NCBI GenBank assembly: GCA_964473825.1
Contig: CAYYQL010000057.1
Coordinates: 1 to 11,149, forward strand
DNA from: an uncultured archaeon
GTDB taxonomy: Archaea > Asgardarchaeota > Thorarchaeia > Thorarchaeales > Thorarchaeaceae
DNA: 11,149 bases
Direction of reading: 5' to 3'
Under the pieces are notes generated by a model. That model saw only the letters and a program-made list of their open reading frames with translations, was not told the DNA's origin and did no database searches. Within the stretch, counting starts at the first letter, position 1; each line of letters begins with the position of its first letter. The translations under genes and the position numbers were made by a program. Positions 1 through 11,093 of this stretch are shown in pieces.

Positions 1-350
1 ATCTCAGGCTCTTCAACTCCGTACAGCTTGGCGAAATACTGGAGATTCTCCTGTGCCGACATTGTAAGGTAGAGAGTATGATTTCCCTCTTCGGGTAGTA
101 CGCCTATGCTCTGTCGAACGGCAACAGGTTCTCTCAATATGTCATGCCCAGCGACTTGAGCTGTTCCTGATGTTGGTCTCAGTAGTGTGCAGAGCATCCG
201 AATTGTTGTCGTCTTTCCTGCGCCATTTGGACCGAGGAGACCGAAAATAGTTCCCTTTGGGACTTCGAGGCTGAGATTGTCCACTGCAATCAGGTCGCCA
301 AACCGCTTGGTGAGTTCAGATATCACAACATCGCTCACAAGAATCACCAT
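1..350 (-). CDS. ABC transporter ATP-binding protein (multidrug/ABC-2, DrrA/CcmA-like), 3' part truncated by the window edge
   Basis: Not in the ORF track. Manual reverse-strand translation gives MVILVSDVVISELTKRFGDLIAVDNLSLEVPKGTIFGLLGPNGAGKTTTIRMLCTLLRPTSGTAQVAGHDI...TMSAQENLQYFAKLYGVEEPE, with Walker A GPNGAGKT. Start is ATG at 350 or GTG at 338 (preceded by SD-like GGTGAT). Confidence 0.95.
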   Translation of the reverse strand, partial: MVILVSDVVISELTKRFGDLIAVDNLSLEVPKGTIFGLLGPNGAGKTTTIRMLCTLLRPTSGTAQVAGHDILREPVAVRQSIGVLPEEGNHTLYLTMSAQENLQYFAKLYGVEEPE

Positions 351-460: not shown

Positions 461-727
461 TCAAGTAGACAGCATCTTCTCAACGACAGCCGTGGTTGTG
501 TCCTTGATGCCTGGTATGGAGTGTATCCTGTGAACTGTAATATCATACAGGTCCTCAAGGCTCGCAACCTCAAGCCGTATGATTATATCGTAGACTCCTG
601 TTGTCACTGCGATCTTCGTCGCCTCATCTATCAAACGTAGCTGCTGTAGTACTTCGTCGGTCTTCCCGAGCTCAATTTCCATCAGGAGGTACGCCAATAC
701 AGTTTCAGTCATCTCTCTCTTCTCCAT
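461..727 (-). CDS. Stand-alone Lrp/AsnC ligand-binding (RAM) domain protein, no HTH
   Basis: Pattern AYLLMEIELGKTDEVLQQL...AVTTGVYDIIIRLEVASLEDLYDITVHRIHSIPGIKDTTTAVV matches the AsnC C-terminal beta-alpha-beta-beta-alpha-beta domain (TGxYD and PG[IV]xxTxT motifs). Alternative start is ATG at 712 (83 aa). Confidence 0.9.
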   Translation of the reverse strand: MEKREMTETVLAYLLMEIELGKTDEVLQQLRLIDEATKIAVTTGVYDIIIRLEVASLEDLYDITVHRIHSIPGIKDTTTAVVEKMLST

Positions 728-741
728 GTTTGTATCTCAAT

Positions 742-2001
742 CTATCTGTAATCCTTTAGAACAACCAGAGTCTGTACGGTCTTGACTCCTGTGATATCTT
801 GAATCTTTCTCAGAATTATCTTTCTTGTCTTCGGCAGACTTCTGCTCCTAACGCTCAGCAGATAGTCGTGTTTTCCTGCTAGAGCAGAGGCGGTTTCAAC
901 ACCGCGAATCGCATAGAGGTCAGACAACAGGTCAGGAGTCCTAGGTTGGACTTTCACAAGAATGATAGACCTGACATCAGATGCCTCGAGGGCAATCACC
1001 CCAATCATTACCAATGTGATACCGGACACTCTCAACGTCCACAGAAAGGCATCAGAAGATATGAACCCAAACGCTCCGGGCAACAGAAGATTTCCAACTA
1101 GGGTCATTGGTATGCCGAGCACTACCGATATTGCGGACAAAGAGTTGACTACGGCCATTGAGCCCCGACCCAACGCCCGAACATACAGGACAACAGACAG
1201 GAACGTCGTAACGGAAGAACCAACCATGAAACCTAGAAGAGGAATGAACTTTGCTGTTATCGTATCCCAGTTCGACTCGTTCATGCTCGGTAAGGAGAGT
1301 AATGTGAAGACCAAGTCAAGAACGAGCAGGGACCAAACACGCATGTTCAACGAGTCAACTCGGAGTCCAGGACGCACTTCATATCGTTTTGCACGACGCT
1401 GGTAGTATGTAGTCAATGCAGATGAGATATTCATTGGAATGAGAACAATCACGAGTGTGGCCAAGTCGAAGCCGCCAGGTGATGCACCAATGAGTAGAAC
1501 GCCGAGTAATATCGATAGTATACAGTGAACTTCAACGATGGTTGGAGTATCCTTCTCAGCAAACAGATCTCCCACTAAGAGATAGATTATGACTAGCTGT
1601 CCGTATGGCAGGACTGAAGAGGTATCAGACCTTCCAACCAGAACATAATAGGAATACGTGGAGATCCCAGCAAATATGCCGGCAAACACGACGTACATCA
1701 ATGGCTTCTTAGGAAGAATGGAGAGACGTCCGAAGTCAGGATCGAGGTCATAGCCCAGAGGTCGCCGTTTACCATCACGTTGACGGTTCAGACTCAAAAA
1801 CGCCACGAGAGATACGGTCACAAGGAACGATACCCATTGAGACATGAAACCGAAGACCAGCGGGTCGTCTATTGCTGTGTTAACAGCAACAATATCAAAA
1901 CCCACAGAAATAGTGCGCATTACTCCCGAACCTAATGCCAGAAGATAGAGAGTCTGGATACTCGAGAATCTTCCCACTGGCCTCTGACTACGGCTACTCA
2001 A
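742..2001 (-). CDS. DMT/EamA-like multi-pass membrane protein with a C-terminal Lrp/AsnC (RAM) domain
   Basis: About 10 hydrophobic segments in two halves with DMT-like signatures (YYVLVGRSDTSSVLPYGQLVIIYLLVGDLFAEK...ILLGVLLI; YVRALGRGSMAVVNSLSAISVVLGIP...GITLVMIGVIAL). The last 78 aa (745-978) match RAM: SIILVKV...IRGVETASALAGKHDYLLSV...IQDITGVKTVQTLVV. TTG start preceded by GGGGTGGAG. Confidence 0.8.
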   Translation of the reverse strand: MSSRSQRPVGRFSSIQTLYLLALGSGVMRTISVGFDIVAVNTAIDDPLVFGFMSQWVSFLVTVSLVAFLSLNRQRDGKRRPLGYDLDPDFGRLSILPKKPLMYVVFAGIFAGISTYSYYVLVGRSDTSSVLPYGQLVIIYLLVGDLFAEKDTPTIVEVHCILSILLGVLLIGASPGGFDLATLVIVLIPMNISSALTTYYQRRAKRYEVRPGLRVDSLNMRVWSLLVLDLVFTLLSLPSMNESNWDTITAKFIPLLGFMVGSSVTTFLSVVLYVRALGRGSMAVVNSLSAISVVLGIPMTLVGNLLLPGAFGFISSDAFLWTLRVSGITLVMIGVIALEASDVRSIILVKVQPRTPDLLSDLYAIRGVETASALAGKHDYLLSVRSRSLPKTRKIILRKIQDITGVKTVQTLVVLKDYR

Positions 2002-3218: not shown

Positions 3219-4118
3219 TCAACAAAGAGCGAATGTCTGAGCTATTCGTGCGGATATGTCAAAATCAGTAACACTCTGGATACCACTCCAACCAGGAGTT
3301 GCATTGACTTCAAGGACGTAGAGATTCCCATCACAGCTAGGAATGATGTCCACCCCAACAAAACGCCCTTTCACACAACTAGCAGCTTGTAGAGCTAAGT
3401 CTTCGACATCAATGTCATTTGGTCTTGCCACTCCGCCCGCGTGAATGTTAGTGACTATCCCGTCTTGAGTATGTCTCTGCATGGTTGTTATCACTTCGCC
3501 TTCAAGAACCAATGCTCTGATATCAAAGCCGGGACTGGAAACCAGTTCCTGCAACAGAAAGGCACCCCGTCCGAAGAGCTGACTATGAAACTTCAAGTAA
3601 TCGTAGATGTTCTCAAGATCAAAGGGATCGCTTATCAATTGAACACCGACTCCACCAAACCCGACCAGAGGTTTCAATACACAGGGATTCCTCTCAAGCA
3701 CGAATCTGGCCGCCTCCTCAATGGACTCTGTAATCAGAGTATCAGGAACGGGAAGTCCTGCGGACACCAAACGTCTCATGCACTCAGCTTTGTTTCGCAT
3801 CTGCAGTATCGACCAGACAGAATTGATGATTTCAATGCCCAGATCCTGCATTGCTGATAGGATTCCAACACGATGAAAGAATGTTCCAATGTCCATACCG
3901 CCAAGGTCTAAGACAAGTACTCGTCTGAGACTACTCAGGTCTTCTCCTTCACATGTAAGTCTATGAGAGTCAGAAGACATCTGTCGCATGACTTTCCAAG
4001 GAAGGACTCTCCTGGTCTGTATTCTGAGGGCGGCAAAGGATGCCTCAAGTGAGGCGGCCCTTCGGGAGGTGTGGTCTGATGAGAATAGGCCAATCTTCGA
4101 GCTTGATTCTGAAAGCAT
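3219..4118 (-). CDS. RimK-family ATP-grasp alpha-L-glutamate ligase (possibly MptN-like, tetrahydromethanopterin:glutamate ligase)
   Basis: Motifs RNKA, GLPVPDT, VLKPLVGFGGVGV, LLQE, DIRALV, TNIHAGG, FVGVDII, VLEVNATPGW. The FHRVGILSAMQDLGIEIINS segment resembles the MptN/Orf5 subgroup, but the substrate cannot be determined by eye. Confidence 0.9.
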   Translation of the reverse strand: MLSESSSKIGLFSSDHTSRRAASLEASFAALRIQTRRVLPWKVMRQMSSDSHRLTCEGEDLSSLRRVLVLDLGGMDIGTFFHRVGILSAMQDLGIEIINSVWSILQMRNKAECMRRLVSAGLPVPDTLITESIEEAARFVLERNPCVLKPLVGFGGVGVQLISDPFDLENIYDYLKFHSQLFGRGAFLLQELVSSPGFDIRALVLEGEVITTMQRHTQDGIVTNIHAGGVARPNDIDVEDLALQAASCVKGRFVGVDIIPSCDGNLYVLEVNATPGWSGIQSVTDFDISARIAQTFALC

Positions 4119-4200: not shown

Positions 4201-4599
4201 ATGTGGTTTATGATGAAGCTCTTCTCAAGCTCGGAAACTCAGAGAATATCACACTCGATTAACACGAAGCCAGGAAGCTATGTAATCAGCTTTCGGAATA
4301 AGCACGGCCCCACACGGTTGAAAGAACTGTGGCTCGACTTTCTCGGGGATCTTGGACTTCAGACTGATTGTGTGAGTTGGTGGTCCAGCTCAGGGACCGT
4401 CGGATTGCTTGAGTGTGAACCGAGGAAGGGCGTGATTCTCTACGGTCAATGGGTTCTGGCTGATGATAATGAACTCATAGCGGTGCTTGAGGTGGATGAA
4501 GAAGATCTCGGCAACATCAGAGAAGGCTTCGACGCCGGGAATGTCACGTCGTACGCCATGCGCGCGATACGGATCGGAGAAACCGGCGACAAAGACTAA
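4201..4599 (+). CDS. Hypothetical protein (about 130 aa)
   Basis: ORF fills the gap between the ATP-grasp gene and glmS, has an upstream TATA-like box, and its stop overlaps the glmS stop (4596-4599). Real start may be ATG 4210 or 4213. No family recognised. Confidence 0.65.
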   Translation: MWFMMKLFSSSETQRISHSINTKPGSYVISFRNKHGPTRLKELWLDFLGDLGLQTDCVSWWSSSGTVGLLECEPRKGVILYGQWVLADDNELIAVLEVDEEDLGNIREGFDAGNVTSYAMRAIRIGETGDKD

Positions 4600-6428
4600 T
4601 CCACAGTCAGGGTCTTTGACAGATTTCTTGGCAAGTCAGGATTGATGCCCAAGTCAACGGAAAGATAGTAGCTTAGCATCTGAAGCGGAATCACATCAAG
4701 CAAGGGATTCAACAGGCCATCCGACTTAGGAACAACAAGGTAGTCAGTGATGTCATCGACGTAATGATTCAGAGAATCCTCGAACTCGCCCACAACAATC
4801 GTCCGACCGTGCCTTGCTTTGACTTCGTTGATATGATTGATGACCATCCAACTGTCCTCGGGTGTGGTGACAAATATGACCGGATATCCCTCTGTGACTA
4901 TGCTAAGAGGGCCATGTTTGAACTCTGATGAGTACATGCCTTCACAGTGATTGTAACAGATCTCCTTGATCTTCAAAGCTCCTTCACGAGCAACACCGTC
5001 CGTGAAACCGTAGCCTAGGCAATACAAATCCTTTACATCAAGCAGGGTGCGAGCAAGATTCTTTGTGAGTATTCCGGTCTTGTCGATGGTCTTCTGAGTC
5101 AATGCGGGAAGTTCGTTCTCAAGAAGAGTAATGAATCTCCTGGACTCCGAACGATCAAGGAATCCGTTCCTCTCCCCCAGTTTCGCAGCGAGGTAAGCAA
5201 AGATGACCGTCTGCGAGAAGTATGTCTTTGTGGCCGGAACTGACACCTCGTATCCGCATGCCATTGGAACATAGTCATCAGCCTGAAACATTAGCGTGCT
5301 CCCGATTACATTCACAACTCCCAGTGTCTTGCCCTTCTTGCTATCTTTCACAAGATTCAATATGTTCATGATATCTTTGGTTTCTCCACTCTGAGATACG
5401 AGCATGCAGAGTGTGTCCTCATCGAGGGTTTTACCGTACATTGGCTCAAACTGGCCGCCAATAACGGGAGTCACAGAAACGCCCGCGAGGCGGTTGAAGT
5501 AGTAGGTACCAACAATGCCCGCGTTATAGGAAGAACCACAGGCAATAAGGTATTTCTTCGAGGAATCCTCTATCATCTTAAGCCAGTTATCGCACTCTTT
5601 GCCACCCAGTACCCCTACGACATCCTGAGCTACTGTAGGCTGCTCATTAATCTCCTTGAGCATGAAATGAGGATATCCGCCTTTCTCAGCTGCGTGAGCA
5701 TCAACATTGCTGATTTCAGGTTGACGATCCAGATGCTTCCCGTCTTCAACTCGGTAGACCTTTACATCGTCAGGGGTCAAGACAACCATTTCGCCATCTT
5801 GAAGGTAGACCACGCGGTTCGTCAGAGGAAGTATTGAGGGTAGGTCACTGGAAACTATCGTGTCACTCCCAGCAACTCCGGCAACGAGAGAAGACCCCAT
5901 CTTGACCGCATAGATTTCGGGTTCATCAGCCCTACCTACGGCGTAAGCGAAGGCGCCCTTCAAATCACGGGTTGAGAGCCTCACGGCTTCGAACATATCG
6001 CCTTTTTGTTCATAGTACTTATCGACAGCATGCACACAGAGCTCACCATCATTCTCCGATCTTACGATGTGTCCTGCTTCAACGAGCTGAGCCCTGTATT
6101 CTGCGTAGTTGTGAAGATTGCCGTTATGGGCCCCATAGAAGACCTCTGTGCAACCATAATGCGGTTGAGCATTTACCTTGGTGGGAGCACCATAGGTAGC
6201 CCATCTTAGTTGAGCAATCCCTCTGTCGCCCTTCATCGCTGACAGGTTCAGCTGTCGGTCCACAATATCAATCGTTCCAACATCCTTCCGGAGATCGACT
6301 TTTCCATCCTTGACCGCTGCAACACCAACCGAGTCATAACCGCGGTAAGTAAGCTTTCGACTACACTTCACAAGTATTTCGCCAATATTCTCTCGATTCT
6401 TGCTAACGATGCCGGTAATCCCGCACAA
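4596..6428 (-). CDS. glmS: Glutamine--fructose-6-phosphate transaminase (isomerizing)
   Basis: N-terminal MCGI (catalytic Cys1), YRGYDSVG, RWAT, HNG, KGGYPHFMLKEINEQP, ACGSSY, SQSGET, PATKT, EGALKIKE, EFKHGP, and C-terminal PRNLSKTLTVD. 610 aa, TTG start with GAGGGAG upstream. Confidence 0.97.
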   Translation of the reverse strand: MCGITGIVSKNRENIGEILVKCSRKLTYRGYDSVGVAAVKDGKVDLRKDVGTIDIVDRQLNLSAMKGDRGIAQLRWATYGAPTKVNAQPHYGCTEVFYGAHNGNLHNYAEYRAQLVEAGHIVRSENDGELCVHAVDKYYEQKGDMFEAVRLSTRDLKGAFAYAVGRADEPEIYAVKMGSSLVAGVAGSDTIVSSDLPSILPLTNRVVYLQDGEMVVLTPDDVKVYRVEDGKHLDRQPEISNVDAHAAEKGGYPHFMLKEINEQPTVAQDVVGVLGGKECDNWLKMIEDSSKKYLIACGSSYNAGIVGTYYFNRLAGVSVTPVIGGQFEPMYGKTLDEDTLCMLVSQSGETKDIMNILNLVKDSKKGKTLGVVNVIGSTLMFQADDYVPMACGYEVSVPATKTYFSQTVIFAYLAAKLGERNGFLDRSESRRFITLLENELPALTQKTIDKTGILTKNLARTLLDVKDLYCLGYGFTDGVAREGALKIKEICYNHCEGMYSSEFKHGPLSIVTEGYPVIFVTTPEDSWMVINHINEVKARHGRTIVVGEFEDSLNHYVDDITDYLVVPKSDGLLNPLLDVIPLQMLSYYLSVDLGINPDLPRNLSKTLTVD

Positions 6429-6583: not shown

Positions 6584-7288
6584 ATGGGAAGAGGAAAGAG
6601 ATTATCATTGCTTCTGCATCCGTTCAGGAAGGACCTATATCAGGTGCTTTGTGAAAACCCTGGCACTTATCTTCTTGAACTCGTTAACCTCCTTGAGTCG
6701 CCTTTGGGTACGTTGACGTGGCACTTGAGGATGCTGCAAAGAGAAGGGCTCATCAAATCCACTAAATTCGCCGGAAAGCGTCTATACTATCCGAAGATGC
6801 TTCGTTCACAAGAGGCCGAGATGGCATATCTTACAATGCGTAGTGAAACAGCGCAGCAGATATTCACCCACATTGTTAACAATCCAGGCTGTTATCAGGA
6901 GCAACTGGCAGAAGAGCGTGGCGTACACCACGACACAATCAGATGGCATGTTGACAAAATGATAGAGGCGGGACTCGTAAGAGTCGAGCGAGAGGGAAGA
7001 AAAAAGAAACACTACCTAGCCAGGCTTGGAGAGGCGCTACTTGCCGGGAGTCTCAACACAATAACAGAGGCATTCGTCATTTTTCTCATGGATAAACTTG
7101 AGGAGGGATGTCTAAATCCTGAAATCAAGGAGAAGACATCGGAACGTGTCACCATCCGTATCGATTGCCCTGAGAGGGGAAATGATTGTTTTATCACAAT
7201 CAATCTGACAGAATGGCAATTTGAGTTCCTAGACGAAGAAACAATTGCTAGCAGACCGACCGAGGAAATCAGGGCAGAAGGCGCCTAG
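6584..7288 (+). CDS. Double winged helix-turn-helix transcriptional regulator (COG3398-like) with an extra C-terminal domain
   Basis: Two internal repeats: LYQVLCENPGTYLLEL...LTWHLRMLQREGLIK...GKRLYY and IFTHIVNNPGCYQEQL...IRWHVDKMIEAGLVRVEREGRKKKHY. Start moved from 6488 to ATG 6584 (SD GAGGAG; TTTTAT at 6532). Confidence 0.88.
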   Translation: MGRGKRLSLLLHPFRKDLYQVLCENPGTYLLELVNLLESPLGTLTWHLRMLQREGLIKSTKFAGKRLYYPKMLRSQEAEMAYLTMRSETAQQIFTHIVNNPGCYQEQLAEERGVHHDTIRWHVDKMIEAGLVRVEREGRKKKHYLARLGEALLAGSLNTITEAFVIFLMDKLEEGCLNPEIKEKTSERVTIRIDCPERGNDCFITINLTEWQFEFLDEETIASRPTEEIRAEGA

Positions 7289-8007
7289 ACAATCTGTTCG
7301 ACCAAGTCAAGGACTTTCCGTGCCAGATCATCCGGATGGGGCCCATGGCAGACCACAGCCAGCAGTCGCTTCTCATCAACCTGATAGACAAGGAAGTCAG
7401 TCTTCTCGGAGTTCACAAAGATGTATTCAGTGCTGTCCGAAAAGGTCAGACCGTTGGCGAAGATTGAGCCAATCAACCCGGCAATCTCTACTTCATCATC
7501 AAAGCCCACCGAACCGAGAGGTAGTCCGTCGAGTGTGAGCAGCATAACCTGAGTGATTTCGGGGATGGCCTCAACAATATTTCCGAGAAGCGTTTCTTTG
7601 CTGAACTCGCTGTGTGAACTCATCAGCAGCTCTATCCGAGTGGCAAGCGACTGAAGCTCTGGAAGGTGCTTGCTCACATCAAAACTGAGGTCGTTACCTC
7701 TCGTCACAACGACAACCAATTGATAGTGTGGTTGAAGAATGGTCAGTATATTCTCAATTCTTGTCGAGTGAATAAGATGACTTGGGGTTGACTGGTCGAT
7801 GTGTCCAAGAGCACTGTTACCAGCCCAGGCCAGAGCTGCCGATACCGTTGCGAGGAGACGTGGGTCTATGTCTTCATGTTTCGAGACCGCAGCAACAACA
7901 ACCCCTTCGCGGGTGCACAACACAGCATTCTTCACTGCCTTGTGTACTTGCAGAGTTTCCTCCAACAAATCCGCAACCTGGGCAAGCATGTCTCCCGCCA
8001 TACTCAA
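7285..8007 (-). CDS. Tandem (two-domain) Roadblock/LC7 protein
   Basis: Domain 1: VKNAVLCTREGVVVAA...DPRLLATVSAALAWAG. Domain 2: IPEITQVMLLTLDGLPLGS...EIAGLIGSIF...IFVNSEKTDFLVYQVDEKRLLAVV. Start is TTG 8007 or ATG 8001. Confidence 0.82.
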   Translation of the reverse strand: MSMAGDMLAQVADLLEETLQVHKAVKNAVLCTREGVVVAAVSKHEDIDPRLLATVSAALAWAGNSALGHIDQSTPSHLIHSTRIENILTILQPHYQLVVVVTRGNDLSFDVSKHLPELQSLATRIELLMSSHSEFSKETLLGNIVEAIPEITQVMLLTLDGLPLGSVGFDDEVEIAGLIGSIFANGLTFSDSTEYIFVNSEKTDFLVYQVDEKRLLAVVCHGPHPDDLARKVLDLVEQIV

Positions 8008-8055: not shown

Positions 8056-8137
8056 CTCTGGTTAGGAGCCCGAAGTCGTCAGAAAGCTTCGACGGCTGGG
8101 AGCTCCTGCAGAGATGTTCTACAGTCAAGCTGAGAAC
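8056..8137 (+). repeat. Long imperfect inverted repeat plus a small second hairpin in the divergent intergenic region
   Basis: CTCTG/CAGAG, AGGAGC/GCTCCT, CC/GG, AGTCGTC/GACGGCT and GAA/TTC nested over 8056-8113; GTTCT-a-CAG-tcaag-CTG-AGAAC at 8116-8137. Confidence 0.6.
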
Positions 8138-8140
8138 GAC

Positions 8141-8150
8141 ATATTTAAAT
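8141..8150 (+). promoter_or_regulatory. TATA box for the BMP gene
   Basis: ATATTTAAAT about 45 nt upstream of ATG 8192, which has the SD GGAGG. Confidence 0.55.
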
Positions 8151-8191
8151 CAGCCACCGAGCGAAATCCCAATACTGACTCTGGAGGAATC

Positions 8192-9277
8192 ATGGTGAGC
8201 TCTAGATCGAGCATAATCACGTCATTGATAATAACAATAATCATCTTTGGCTCAGTTGGTGTTGTTCTCTACGGAACCAACCAGTATGAACCATCACGAG
8301 TGGCGGTGGTAGTCCTTGAGCCCGGATTTGGTGACAGGAGCTATGCGGACCAGCTTCAAAGAGGTTTGGAACTTCTCGCAGGTGACATCAATGTGGCGTA
8401 CGATGAAACTGTCACAACAGAAACCGAAGCCGAACTGACGCTGAAGAGTCTGGCTGCAACTGGAATCTATGAACTGATAGTCGGCCTTGGAGAACGAATA
8501 GAGGGCCCACTTGCCGCTGCGGCACAGCAGTACACCGGACAGCAATTTGCTATAATAGGTGGCCAGGTGGACCTCGACAATGTTGCATCTGCTACGTTCG
8601 CCGTAGAAGAGGGCGCATACCTCGCAGGCATCTTTGCCGCTCTGCAAGTGTCCGAGCCCCTGTATAATGGTAGAATCGGCATCTTGGCGTCGCTGGAAAC
8701 AGATAACACAGTACAGGCCATCATCAATGGGTTCATAATGGGCGTCCAAGAAGCGAATGAAACCTTTGATCTAGAGGTCACCATAAGAGACCCGGTCTTC
8801 CTTGGAGGATACAACAGAACTGAACTTGCAAAGCAGTATACTGAAACACTGTTCCTTGGCACAGAGGGGGTGTCACTGATTTTTGCACCGGTCAGGGCAG
8901 CCATCGTGGGAGTGAGACAAGGCTTACTGACTGCAAATGCTACATTCACAGGAGAACGCAGACCGATGGTCATCGCAGCTGAAGGAAACCAGGATTACTA
9001 TGGCAACCCTGATCCTGATGTTCTCTCGGCTGGAGATTGGGGAAGCATGATTCCAACAAGCGTAGTTCCGCGTACTGATCTCGCAATCTATCAGATTCTG
9101 AACGCAACACTCTGGAACGATTTCCCGGCTGGAGAAGTACTGGAATACAACGTGGCTAATGGTGGAGTAAACCTCACGAATTTCGTGTATGCAACCTATG
9201 TCCCAAGCAGTATAATTCAGGTTGTCAAGGAGTACAGAATTGATATAGCTACAGGCGAAATAACCGTCGAAGTATAG
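8192..9277 (+). CDS. BMP/PnrA-family solute-binding protein with an N-terminal membrane anchor
   Basis: N-terminal TM helix (IITSLIITIIIFGSVGVVLYG), then VAVVVLEPGFGDRSYAD, YELIVGLG, QQFAIIG, NVASATFAVEEGAYLAGIFAA, GFIMGV, GVSLIF. Start moved from 8114 to ATG 8192. Confidence 0.88.
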   Translation: MVSSRSSIITSLIITIIIFGSVGVVLYGTNQYEPSRVAVVVLEPGFGDRSYADQLQRGLELLAGDINVAYDETVTTETEAELTLKSLAATGIYELIVGLGERIEGPLAAAAQQYTGQQFAIIGGQVDLDNVASATFAVEEGAYLAGIFAALQVSEPLYNGRIGILASLETDNTVQAIINGFIMGVQEANETFDLEVTIRDPVFLGGYNRTELAKQYTETLFLGTEGVSLIFAPVRAAIVGVRQGLLTANATFTGERRPMVIAAEGNQDYYGNPDPDVLSAGDWGSMIPTSVVPRTDLAIYQILNATLWNDFPAGEVLEYNVANGGVNLTNFVYATYVPSSIIQVVKEYRIDIATGEITVEV

Positions 9278-9326: not shown

Positions 9327-9341
9327 TGAGTGGTGTTCTCG

Positions 9342-9932
9342 ATGAACGGCAAGGACGACATGATGTTTCCGACTTATATTGAAAGACTCAAGCAGCTGAG
9401 TAGAACAGGTTGGCAACTCTCGGGGATACCTAAGAGCCTCGGAGAGTCGATTGCAGAGCATTCTTGGGGGACGAGTGTCTTTGCCCTCTTACTCTCGCTT
9501 GAGTTGAGAGAGAATGGCAAAGACGTCAATATTGAGAAGACTCTTGCAATGGCGATAATCCATGACTTGGCTGAGAGTCTAACATCAGATATTCCTCGAA
9601 GTGCATTACAGGAGTCCAAGACCCTTACCGATGATATCAAGAGAGAAGCCGAGCGCGAGGCAATGAAGCGCATCTCAGCTCACTTAGAGCACTCGCGAGA
9701 TGACCTGCTCGATTTACATCTTGAGATGCAGCAGATAGAAACTCTTGAGGCAAAGATTGTTCATGCTGCGGATCTCCTCGACATGATGAATCATGCACGT
9801 TGGCTGAATAGCATCGGGATTGAACTTAAAATCGTCGAGCCCTTCATATCTTCGGCTCTCGCAAGGATTAAAGAAATCAACATCCCTAGCGCCACTCGTC
9901 TGGCGCAAAGAATCGCAAGGAATCCGGACTGA
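9342..9932 (+). CDS. HD-domain phosphohydrolase, YfbR/HDDC2-like 5'-deoxynucleotidase
   Basis: LKQLSRTGW, ESIAEHSW, AIIHDLAESLTSDIP, TLEAKIVHAADLLDM. Start is ATG 9342 (GTGGTG upstream), GTG 9330, or ATG 9360. Confidence 0.88.
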   Translation: MNGKDDMMFPTYIERLKQLSRTGWQLSGIPKSLGESIAEHSWGTSVFALLLSLELRENGKDVNIEKTLAMAIIHDLAESLTSDIPRSALQESKTLTDDIKREAEREAMKRISAHLEHSRDDLLDLHLEMQQIETLEAKIVHAADLLDMMNHARWLNSIGIELKIVEPFISSALARIKEINIPSATRLAQRIARNPD

Positions 9933-9948: not shown

Positions 9949-10566
9949 CTATTCTCTTGAAGAATCACGTCGCAATGAGGCGGCAACCACTCCAGCAACA
10001 CGAACAGGCTCGGACGTCTTTCCTTGATGACTGAAGATGTTCAAGAGGGCTTTCGCGTCTTGAATGCTGATTCCACTTGTGTTGACAAACACCCGAAAAC
10101 CGTTGTCTAACACGATTTCAGAGCGCTCTCCATTTCGTACCAGTATTTCGTACCTTCTCTCCCAGTCAGAAGGGAAATACTCCTCAAGATATTGCTTGAT
10201 CCCTTGAGACTCCTCATAGGATACACTCACCACTGGCACGCCTGTTTCATCGTGAAGCTGCTGCAGGTCCACGATATTGAACCACGAGATCACTGTTCCA
10301 CCAATAATCATAGCCCTGATGTCACCTCTCGACAGACGAGAGTACATAGAGAGAATTTCGGCAGTTGCATCCGTCCCACCAACCCGAGGCCAGCAGAAAC
10401 CAGCGCCGTCAATCTTCAAATCCCCTCTCATCACAACGCCAGCCACTACACTCCTTTCGTCACTCTTGTGAAAGCTCTCTGCTATCCCTAAAGCTCTGGC
10501 ACCAGATTTCCATTCAATAGCTTTTCGATCGGAGGATTCGAAGGTGAGATCAACCTGCCTATTCAT
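9949..10566 (-). CDS. DUF99/UPF0215 (COG1628) endonuclease V homolog
   Basis: ALGIAESF, VVAGVVMRGDLKIDG, VGGTDAT, GGTVISWFNIVDL, GVPVVSVSYEESQG, EPVRVA. Confidence 0.88.
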   Translation of the reverse strand: MNRQVDLTFESSDRKAIEWKSGARALGIAESFHKSDERSVVAGVVMRGDLKIDGAGFCWPRVGGTDATAEILSMYSRLSRGDIRAMIIGGTVISWFNIVDLQQLHDETGVPVVSVSYEESQGIKQYLEEYFPSDWERRYEILVRNGERSEIVLDNGFRVFVNTSGISIQDAKALLNIFSHQGKTSEPVRVAGVVAASLRRDSSRE

Positions 10567-10607: not shown

Positions 10608-10654
10608 TTGTTTGAAACAACACGTGTCAATCATGACCAGTATAACTTTATTAA
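10608..10654 (+). promoter_or_regulatory. Palindromic operator candidate and TATA box of the Roadblock gene
   Basis: TTGTTT-g-AAACAA (10608-10620) and TTTATTAA (10647-10654). Confidence 0.45.
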
Positions 10655-10709
10655 TGCGCATCTTCCAAACAAGAAACACAACCTAAAAACACCAAAGGGA
10701 GTGGTCGCT

Positions 10710-11093
10710 GTGTTCGACGCCAGTTTTGAACAGCTTCAAGTGAATCTCAGGGAGATTATGGAAGAAGCGACAGCATTGGCTACAGGCGTCCGAGCATGGA
10801 TGCTCCTCTCCAAGGAGGGACTTCCTATTGCATCAGCTGTTCCTCAAGGGCTGGAAGAGGCAGAGATAGCGGCCATGGCAGCATCAATACTTGGAGTGGC
10901 AGACCTCGCCGCCGAGAGAATGGATCAAGGCATGCTCGAAGAGATCCTTATGACCAACGAGCATGGTCTGATGATACTAAAGAGTGCAGGGGAAAAGGCG
11001 ATCCTAGTTCTCGCTGCTCGCAAGGACATGAAGACAGGACTCCTTGTGTATGCTGCGAAGACAGCATGCGAGAAGATTGGACCGATGCTCTAG
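10710..11093 (+). CDS. Roadblock/LC7 (MglB/LAMTOR2-like) domain protein
   Basis: GVRAWMLLSKEGLPIASAVPQGLEEAEIAAMAASILGVADLAAERMDQGMLEEILMTNEHGLMILKSAGEKAILVLAARKDMKTGLL is a canonical Roadblock. Start moved to GTG 10710 (GGGAGTGG upstream); GTG 10701 is an alternative. Confidence 0.93.
   Translation: MFDASFEQLQVNLREIMEEATALATGVRAWMLLSKEGLPIASAVPQGLEEAEIAAMAASILGVADLAAERMDQGMLEEILMTNEHGLMILKSAGEKAILVLAARKDMKTGLLVYAAKTACEKIGPML

Follow-up and report, generated by a model that had tools for sequence, protein, structure and literature searches.

A DMT-fold membrane protein with an Lrp/AsnC ligand-binding domain, and the free copy of that domain encoded beside it, in Asgard archaea

What does a ligand-binding domain of the Lrp/AsnC type do at the end of a membrane protein, and does it act there alone? 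To our knowledge, such domains (RAM domains) have been described almost exclusively as the effector domains of Lrp/AsnC transcription factors. The question is raised by a gene on contig CAYYQL010000057.1 (GenBank assembly GCA_964473825.1) of an uncultured Thorarchaeota-type Asgard archaeon, the genome of which comprises 3.27 Mb and is 95.7% complete; the window analysed here is the entire contig of 11,149 bp. The gene specifies a membrane protein of the drug/metabolite transporter (DMT) fold which runs directly into a RAM domain, referred to below as the tethered RAM. A first-pass annotation, made from the sequence and without database searches, noticed this fusion and left out the adjoining gene, which specifies a second RAM domain as a free protein. 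That free RAM gene is the most informative feature of the locus and makes of it a two-protein module. With moderate confidence, the module is read here as a DMT transporter under the control of a gating assembly, built in the cytoplasm from tethered and free RAM subunits. Its components, in the numbering of the window, are:

742..2001, minus strand: DMT-RAM fusion gene, 419 amino acids (aa), with a TTG start at 2001 and a TAG stop at 742-744
982..1962, minus strand: membrane domain, aa 14-340, ten transmembrane (TM) helices, DMT fold, N-in/C-in
745..978, minus strand: tethered RAM (Lrp/AsnC ligand-binding) domain, aa 342-419, assigned by PF01037 and fold, cytoplasmic
713..741, minus strand: spacer of 29 nt between the stop codon of the fusion and the start codon of the free RAM gene
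461..712, minus strand: free RAM gene, 83 aa, lacking a helix-turn-helix (HTH); PF01037 at 49.7 bits (cut-off 25), with Thorarchaeota orthologues of 83 aa

The structure of the fusion protein was predicted using AlphaFold2 on a 61-sequence alignment (mean pLDDT 87.9, pTM 0.85). In the model the membrane domain consists of ten TM helices (residues 14-42, 47-69, 98-124, 127-149, 155-171, 180-205, 217-239, 242-279, 282-306 and 318-340), which form two five-helix halves superposable on solved DMT transporters, and a beta-hairpin is present in the loop between TM2 and TM3. The strong Foldseek matches to this domain were DMT transporters without exception. Using VIA-align the best of these was LicB (7paf_A; Z=28.3, rmsd 3.1 Å, 276/278 aa), and TPT (Z=24.0), PfCRT (23.9), Vrg4 (22.6) and YddG (22.0) also aligned. 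At the sequence level, Pfam EamA (PF00892) covered only aa 92-171, a single half-domain, with a score of 18.4 bits where the gathering threshold is 28.2; among 32 fused representatives of the family 17 matched EamA at E<0.01, the best of them at 2.5e-9. A family profile searched against PDB sequences retrieved RAM proteins only and no solved DMT transporter, so that the DMT assignment depends on the fold together with weak Pfam matches. NCBIfam holds no model for the fusion family, the RAM part giving sub-threshold LysM, AsnC and LrpA matches only. Since its EamA score lies under the Pfam threshold, the protein appears to form a family of its own within the DMT fold and not to belong among the curated EamA members. 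Five residues (D36, E157, G167, D216 and R221) are invariant across the 32 fused representatives.

The orientation in the membrane follows from the distribution of charge. The loops of the fusion contain 18 lysine and arginine residues on the side predicted to be inside and one on the outside, and the means across the 32 family members are 15.3 and 1.5, respectively. By the positive-inside rule this predicts an N-in/C-in topology, with the RAM domain in the cytoplasm.

The frame 742..2001 on the minus strand is uninterrupted. Residues 1-27 of its product (MSSxSQRPVG...) are conserved in homologues which have an ATG start, and TM1 begins at residue 14 of the AlphaFold2 model; the long, 419-aa form is therefore the right one. 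Many public gene calls for the family take the internal Met28 as the start and give 392 aa, at the cost of half of TM1. Many public records, moreover, name the fusion "Lrp/AsnC family transcriptional regulator". No HTH family match (Pfam, NCBIfam) was found in either the fusion or the free RAM protein and, because the N-terminus is instead a ten-TM domain, these names are misnomers. A scan for sigma-70 promoters and terminators gave output at chance level, the sigma-70 model not being meaningful for an archaeon.

The C-terminal domain of the fusion is identified by sequence and structure alike. Pfam PF01037 matches aa 347-416 (E=4.9e-11, 42.8 bits against a cut-off of 25) and is found in 30 of the 32 fused representatives; the family profile matches DM1 in the PDB at 5e-13. 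The model shows the beta-alpha-beta-beta-alpha-beta fold of RAM domains (strand 343-351, helix 359-364, strands 368-373 and 380-386, helix 389-402, strand 406-413), and more than 25 RAM structures align with it at Z=11-13.8 and rmsd 1.4-1.9 Å, among them TTHA0845 (Z=13.8, rmsd 1.7 Å, 77 aa) and FL11, STS042 and DM1 (Z=12-12.6). Only about two residues link the end of TM10 (340) to the start of the first RAM strand (343). The first-pass annotation had noted some 340 residues of DMT-like multi-pass protein followed by a complete 78-aa RAM domain, and had proposed that the latter faces the cytoplasm; all of this is borne out by the ten helices with their Foldseek and VIA-align matches, by PF01037 above its cut-off and the modelled RAM fold, and by the charge of the loops. 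Its label of EamA holds in part: the fold is that of the DMT transporters and about half of the relatives match EamA, while the score of the protein itself stays below the threshold.

The fusion is widespread and, judging by its conservation, under selection. Its close homologues from independent Thorarchaeota assemblies and from other Asgard lineages, more than 240 proteins with 60-99% identity, are fused and nearly all exactly 419 aa long. An exhaustive search of 50%-identity representatives gave 85 matches, of which about 25 are full-length fused proteins of 378-469 aa with identities as low as 25%. By their source names these belong to Baldr-, Odin-, Heimdall-, Hod- and Hermodarchaeota and to Asgardarchaeum, single fused clusters being labelled Thermoprotei and Woesearchaeota. 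Of 201 Asgard genomes, sampled evenly and surveyed for a full-length single-frame copy at E below 1e-119, about 90 carry the fusion, including 37 of 43 genomes of the family of the source organism; in several large Asgard families no full-length fusion was found in the genomes searched. In the phylum of the Woesearchaeota carrier only one of 151 sampled genomes was positive, namely the carrier itself, which indicates that presence outside the Asgard archaea is sporadic in the genomes searched. In the ESM Atlas, one fused cluster of matching shape comes from Thermoplasmatota (TM score 0.85, 403 residues) and another from Promethearchaeota. No tandem fusion of the DMT-RAM-RAM type occurred among the 85 representative matches, the longest of which (469 aa) has a loop insertion.

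Unfused, unnamed proteins of about 340 aa, distantly related, have the signature of the membrane domain in common with the fusion but no Pfam match and no RAM neighbour. These were considered as split forms and rejected; upstream of P0169, one of these proteins, lies the gene of a zinc-ribbon-like 98-aa protein and not of a RAM domain. In one Asgard genome the fusion lies in two adjoining pieces (G114:C21:10724-11999, minus strand; profile positions 1-303 and 306-409), which is probably a frameshift or assembly error. The homologues are thus fused and not specified by separate genes, in keeping with what the first-pass annotation supposed. It had also named no characterised example. The architecture is widespread in the Asgard archaea, and no description or characterisation of a DMT-RAM fusion was found in the literature searched, the coverage of which is incomplete and no proof of absence.

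The second component of the module is the free RAM protein. The ATG at 712 was taken as its start, on the grounds that the orthologues are 83 aa long; an alternative ATG at 727 would give a product of 88 aa. Its closest solved relatives are STS042 (2zbc, 6.8e-11), followed by FL11 and DM1. The free RAM gene directly adjoins the fusion on the same strand in all 26 loci compared, that is, in the source window, in five distant lineages and in 20 more loci drawn from 10 or more Asgard families. In the five distant lineages a RAM gene of 71-82 aa is situated directly upstream of the fusion with gaps of -4 to +25 nt, and no other neighbour is conserved; in 20 of the 20 further loci a free RAM reading frame is likewise directly upstream and on the same strand. 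According to the genome survey it stands downstream only in the Thorarchaeota family of the source, the sister family having it upstream in spite of belonging to the same order. The pairing has therefore outlasted a rearrangement. Pairwise distances of the free RAM and of the membrane domain are correlated (r=0.83, a value reached in none of 2000 permutations), which is consistent with co-inheritance of the free RAM and the fusion.

Two of the 20 Asgard loci, from two families, have the arrangement RAM / DMT-RAM / RAM, with a second, more divergent free RAM downstream (L028:2115-2399 and L031:1857-2183, both plus strand) in which Met replaces the first Thr of the TxT motif described below. Such loci may point to the origin of the downstream position in Thorarchaeota.

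The source genome as a whole contains 13 matches to PF01037 (one of them at G000:C3:31286-31495, plus strand), including several of HTH length and several stand-alone reading frames. Several lie in RAM-only frames of 78-101 aa; one further match lies in a 332-aa frame which is not a DMT fusion according to the family profile.

Do the two RAM copies retain the means of binding a ligand? In Grp, a receptor for glutamine, the loop G99..D102 contacts the alpha-amino and carboxylate groups of the ligand, the amino group through D102, and T132 and T134 of the neighbouring dimer also hold the carboxylate (PMC2504300). The equivalent positions in the window are:

865..876, minus strand: G376-K-H-D379, GxxD loop of the tethered RAM, equivalent to Grp G99..D102
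769..777, minus strand: V409-Q-T411, degenerate TxT of the tethered RAM, the first Thr replaced
587..598, minus strand: G39-V-Y-D42, intact GxxD loop of the free RAM
491..499, minus strand: T72-T-T74, intact TxT of the free RAM, equivalent to Grp T132/T134

Among 35 free RAMs the Gly and the Asp are present in every one, the first Thr in 30, and the second position of the pair is Thr or Ser in all 35. The tethered RAMs, 52 in number, have Gly in 50 and Asp in 48, with Thr or Ser at the second position in 38. A ligand motif which is conserved and yet asymmetric, the tethered copy lacking the first Thr, argues for ligand binding at putative composite sites made by tethered and free copies.

The two copies differ in charge as well. 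The mean net charge of the core is +4.7 in the tethered and -4.8 in the free RAM, and in each of 20 new pairs, as in all five earlier ones, the tethered copy is the more positive. The complementarity was at one point considered a peculiarity of Thorarchaeota; this was rejected once the 20 additional pairs revealed a family-wide trend.

A complex prediction, covering the tethered/free heterodimer and three controls, was carried out with the tethered RAM as aa 340-419. The heterodimer scored 0.77 and the best control 0.01. Among solved complexes 58 of 80 attain this mark, as do two of 110 mismatched pairs; these counts apply here only approximately, since alignments prepared for the present analysis were used. 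Contacts agreed between runs at 96% or more, and the pLDDT of the partner was at least 89. The predicted interface is that of the canonical RAM dimer, formed by strand 2 and strand 4. As RAM dimers are already among the solved structures, the score indicates likeness and compatibility and not specificity or binding. From this model we infer, with the same reserve, that tethered and free RAM pair physically.

Taken as a whole, the locus is proposed to specify a two-gene module in which a ten-TM secondary transporter of the DMT type, its last helix running into a cytoplasmic RAM domain, would be docked by the 83-aa free RAM protein. Together the two copies would constitute a hetero-oligomeric sensor of small molecules at the inner face of the transporter, the ligand most likely being an amino acid or a related metabolite. 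The stand-alone RAM protein DM1 associates with FL11 into hetero-octamers, and ligands shift the oligomeric state of RAM proteins (PMC2995911). Binding of the ligand would re-pack the RAM assembly and the change would be passed to TM10, opening or blocking transport; that a re-packing could reach the transport domain is suggested by the very short linker. Ligand binding and gating, like the substrate and the direction of transport, are what we infer from these features. The ligand-gated transporter or transceptor of the first-pass annotation is partly supported.

The most likely role would be that of a homeostatic valve, either an exporter switched on by the build-up of its substrate in the cytoplasm or an importer closed by trans-inhibition. 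Both are favoured by the fact that Lrp/AsnC regulators commonly control genes of EamA-type transporters, at the level of transcription (PMC8707732).

Canonical RAM sites lie between dimers, which implies that at least four RAM domains take part, for example two tethered and two free. The asymmetry of the motifs suggests composite sites, and a more specific proposal may be formulated from it: an obligate asymmetric gating assembly in which each site would combine the GxxD loop of a tethered copy with the TxT strand of a free one. We put this forward tentatively, as possible rather than probable. If it were true, the module would be the first RAM-gated secondary transporter, would give stand-alone RAM proteins their first defined cellular role, and would represent an Asgard-wide post-translational valve in amino-acid or metabolite homeostasis.

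Several points weigh against a gated transporter. The first Thr of TxT is retained in two of the 52 tethered RAMs, being otherwise V, I, M, L, Y or F. The positive charge of the tethered copy could merely reflect its proximity to the membrane. A correlation of distances is expected between any two vertically inherited genes, and the score of the predicted complex may represent the memory of solved RAM dimers from the family and is no proof of specificity. The assembly would require at least four RAM domains to come together although one of the copies is tethered to a membrane. Finally, conserved neighbours gave no clue to the substrate, the genes beyond the free RAM being variable.

Some of the same observations can be explained otherwise. 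GlnK is sequestered by AmtB, and Mlc by PtsG. By analogy, the transporter might capture and release the free RAM protein, which would join Lrp/AsnC regulators and alter transcription, the fusion acting as a transceptor. Such exchange of subunits is conceivable, as the partner of DM1 in its hetero-octamers, FL11, is a full-length regulator (PMC2995911), and the HTH-length and stand-alone frames among the 13 RAM matches of the source genome could swap subunits; the predicted pairing of tethered and free RAM agrees with it too. Against this, the one-to-one adjacency in 26 of 26 loci, the opposite charge and the co-divergence are marks of a dedicated partner and not of a subunit drawn from a pool, and no gene for an Lrp-type HTH protein is conserved beside the module in the five distant lineages. 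We consider sequestration unlikely.

An improbability of the same order attaches to the view that the RAM pair is a structural scaffold for oligomerisation or stability, free of any ligand-dependent regulation. The near-absence of the first Thr from the tethered copies (2/52) is what this view would lead one to expect, and some proteins of the Lrp family have been reported to be unresponsive to amino acids (PMC2995911). It can hardly account for the retention of GxxD in 48-50 of the 52 tethered copies, nor for that of GxxD and TxT in 30-35 of the 35 free ones, across lineages with as little as 25% identity, and a scaffold would not need a second subunit encoded separately.

The DMT-fold domain might, on the other hand, be no solute transporter at all, and the RAM copies might regulate a membrane receptor, or an ArnE/F-type flippase for lipid-linked sugars. 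The marginal EamA score (18.4 against 28.2 bits), the lack of an NCBIfam family and of sequence matches to solved DMT proteins leave room for this idea, and the superfamily does contain flippase-like members (an Atlas cluster is labelled "putative ArnE protein"). However, the domain is a complete ten-TM unit whose best whole-length matches are the solute transporters LicB (Z=28.3, 276/278 aa), TPT and YddG; the invariant intramembrane carboxylates D36 and E157 fit the coupling of an ion or substrate, and genes of glycan or lipid biosynthesis are not conserved nearby in the five distant lineages. This explanation has, in our estimation, only a slim chance of being correct.

That two genes were read as one through an error of assembly or annotation is effectively refuted, the two-piece gene of the one genome (G114) notwithstanding, by the uninterrupted frame, the more than 240 homologues of equal length from independent assemblies, the roughly 25 distant fused clusters and the roughly 90 genomes with a full-length single frame.

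The remaining genes identified in the window surround the module as follows:

3..350, minus strand: ATPase of an ABC transporter (PF00005, E=3.8e-17), incomplete at the contig end
2071..2991, minus strand: DUF7121 coiled-coil protein, separated from the fusion by an upstream gap of 69 nt, with weak SMC/Rad50-like matches only
3219..4118, minus strand: RimK-family ATP-grasp protein of the alpha-L-glutamate ligase type, MptN-like by NCBIfam (183 bits, below the cut-off)
4596..6428, minus strand: GlmS-type amidotransferase with SIS domains, ordinary housekeeping
7285..8007, minus strand, and 10608..11093, plus strand: two Roadblock/LC7 proteins, one of which has two Robl repeats in a 240-aa chain
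8114..9277, plus strand: PnrA/Bmp-type substrate-binding protein, ordinary housekeeping
9330..9932, plus strand: HD-domain hydrolase, ordinary housekeeping
9949..10566, minus strand: endonuclease dU (PF01949), ordinary housekeeping

Two of these neighbours were considered as parts of the module and rejected. The ABC ATPase follows the free RAM gene on the same strand at a distance of 110 nt, and in two other loci (L001 and L002) ABC_tran and ABC2_membrane genes follow directly after the module; no ABC ATPase was found within 900 nt of the module in the 20 other Asgard loci, and it was set aside as not conserved. The RimK-type gene is two genes upstream of the module, an arrangement which recurs in a lineage at 40% identity (L001). 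It was rejected since it occurs only there and in the source window; a link between this gene and the substrate of the module is possible. At the position of the DUF7121 gene, L001 has an unannotated gene of 399 aa. The pair of Roadblock/LC7 proteins is typical of the small-GTPase-regulator content of Asgard genomes.

What the module would mean is that a RAM sensor, fused to a transporter and supplied with a dedicated free copy, could run at the level of protein the logic by which Lrp controls an exporter. It occurs in nearly half of the sampled genomes of the Asgard archaea, the closest archaeal relatives of eukaryotes, and public records label it no more than "Lrp/AsnC ligand binding domain-containing protein" or, in error, call it a transcriptional regulator; the analysis corrects these public annotations and the start calls (392 versus 419 aa). 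Both RAM proteins are small and soluble, which makes ligand screens feasible, and the asymmetry of their motifs defines precise mutants.

How does it compare with known systems? With the DMT transporters (the amino-acid exporter YddG, the choline transporter LicB, TPT and the nucleotide-sugar transporters of SLC35) the fusion shares the fold, the N-in/C-in topology and the ten helices. It has about 10-17% identity to the solved ones and invariant residues of its own (D36, E157, D216 and R221), and among these matches the fusion alone has a soluble ligand-binding domain. With the Lrp/AsnC regulators (Grp/ST1022, FL11, E. coli Lrp and AsnC) it has in common the RAM fold and the GxxD loop, and the dimer interface predicted for it is the canonical one; it differs in having no HTH, in its ten-TM N-terminus and in a TxT motif of which the first Thr has been replaced. 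The free partner belongs among the stand-alone RAM proteins exemplified by DM1 from Pyrococcus horikoshii and STS042 from Sulfolobus tokodaii, with GxxD and TxT in full. The role of such proteins has been described as unclear (PMC2995911). Whereas DM1 forms hetero-oligomers with a DNA-binding RAM protein, the predicted partner here is a membrane transporter, the gene of which is adjacent in 26 of 26 loci.

RAM domains also occur on soluble enzymes. ESM Atlas clusters combine HMGL-like and HCS_D2 domains with a C-terminal PF01037, and in these 2-isopropylmalate/homocitrate synthases the RAM domain would be an allosteric module on a protein which does not bind DNA, as it would be in the fusion, the latter being a membrane protein. 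Feedback by lysine may act through the RAM domain of homocitrate synthase; no confirmation of this was found in the literature searched.

Gating of transporters and channels by ligand-binding domains in the cytoplasm, whether these occur in tethered and soluble copies or as a dedicated soluble partner, is known from the RCK rings of MthK and Ktr/Trk, from AmtB-GlnK and from the ACT-like C2 domain of MetNI. The logic appears alike, in that a small alpha/beta sensor, encoded in or beside the transporter gene, links the level of a metabolite to transport; the fold of the sensor (RAM) and the class of transporter (DMT) are different, and the resemblance would be an analogy of mechanism and not one of descent. 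A regulatory domain on a transporter is thus known, and what is new in the Asgard module is the unusual sensor fold and its obligate free paralogue.

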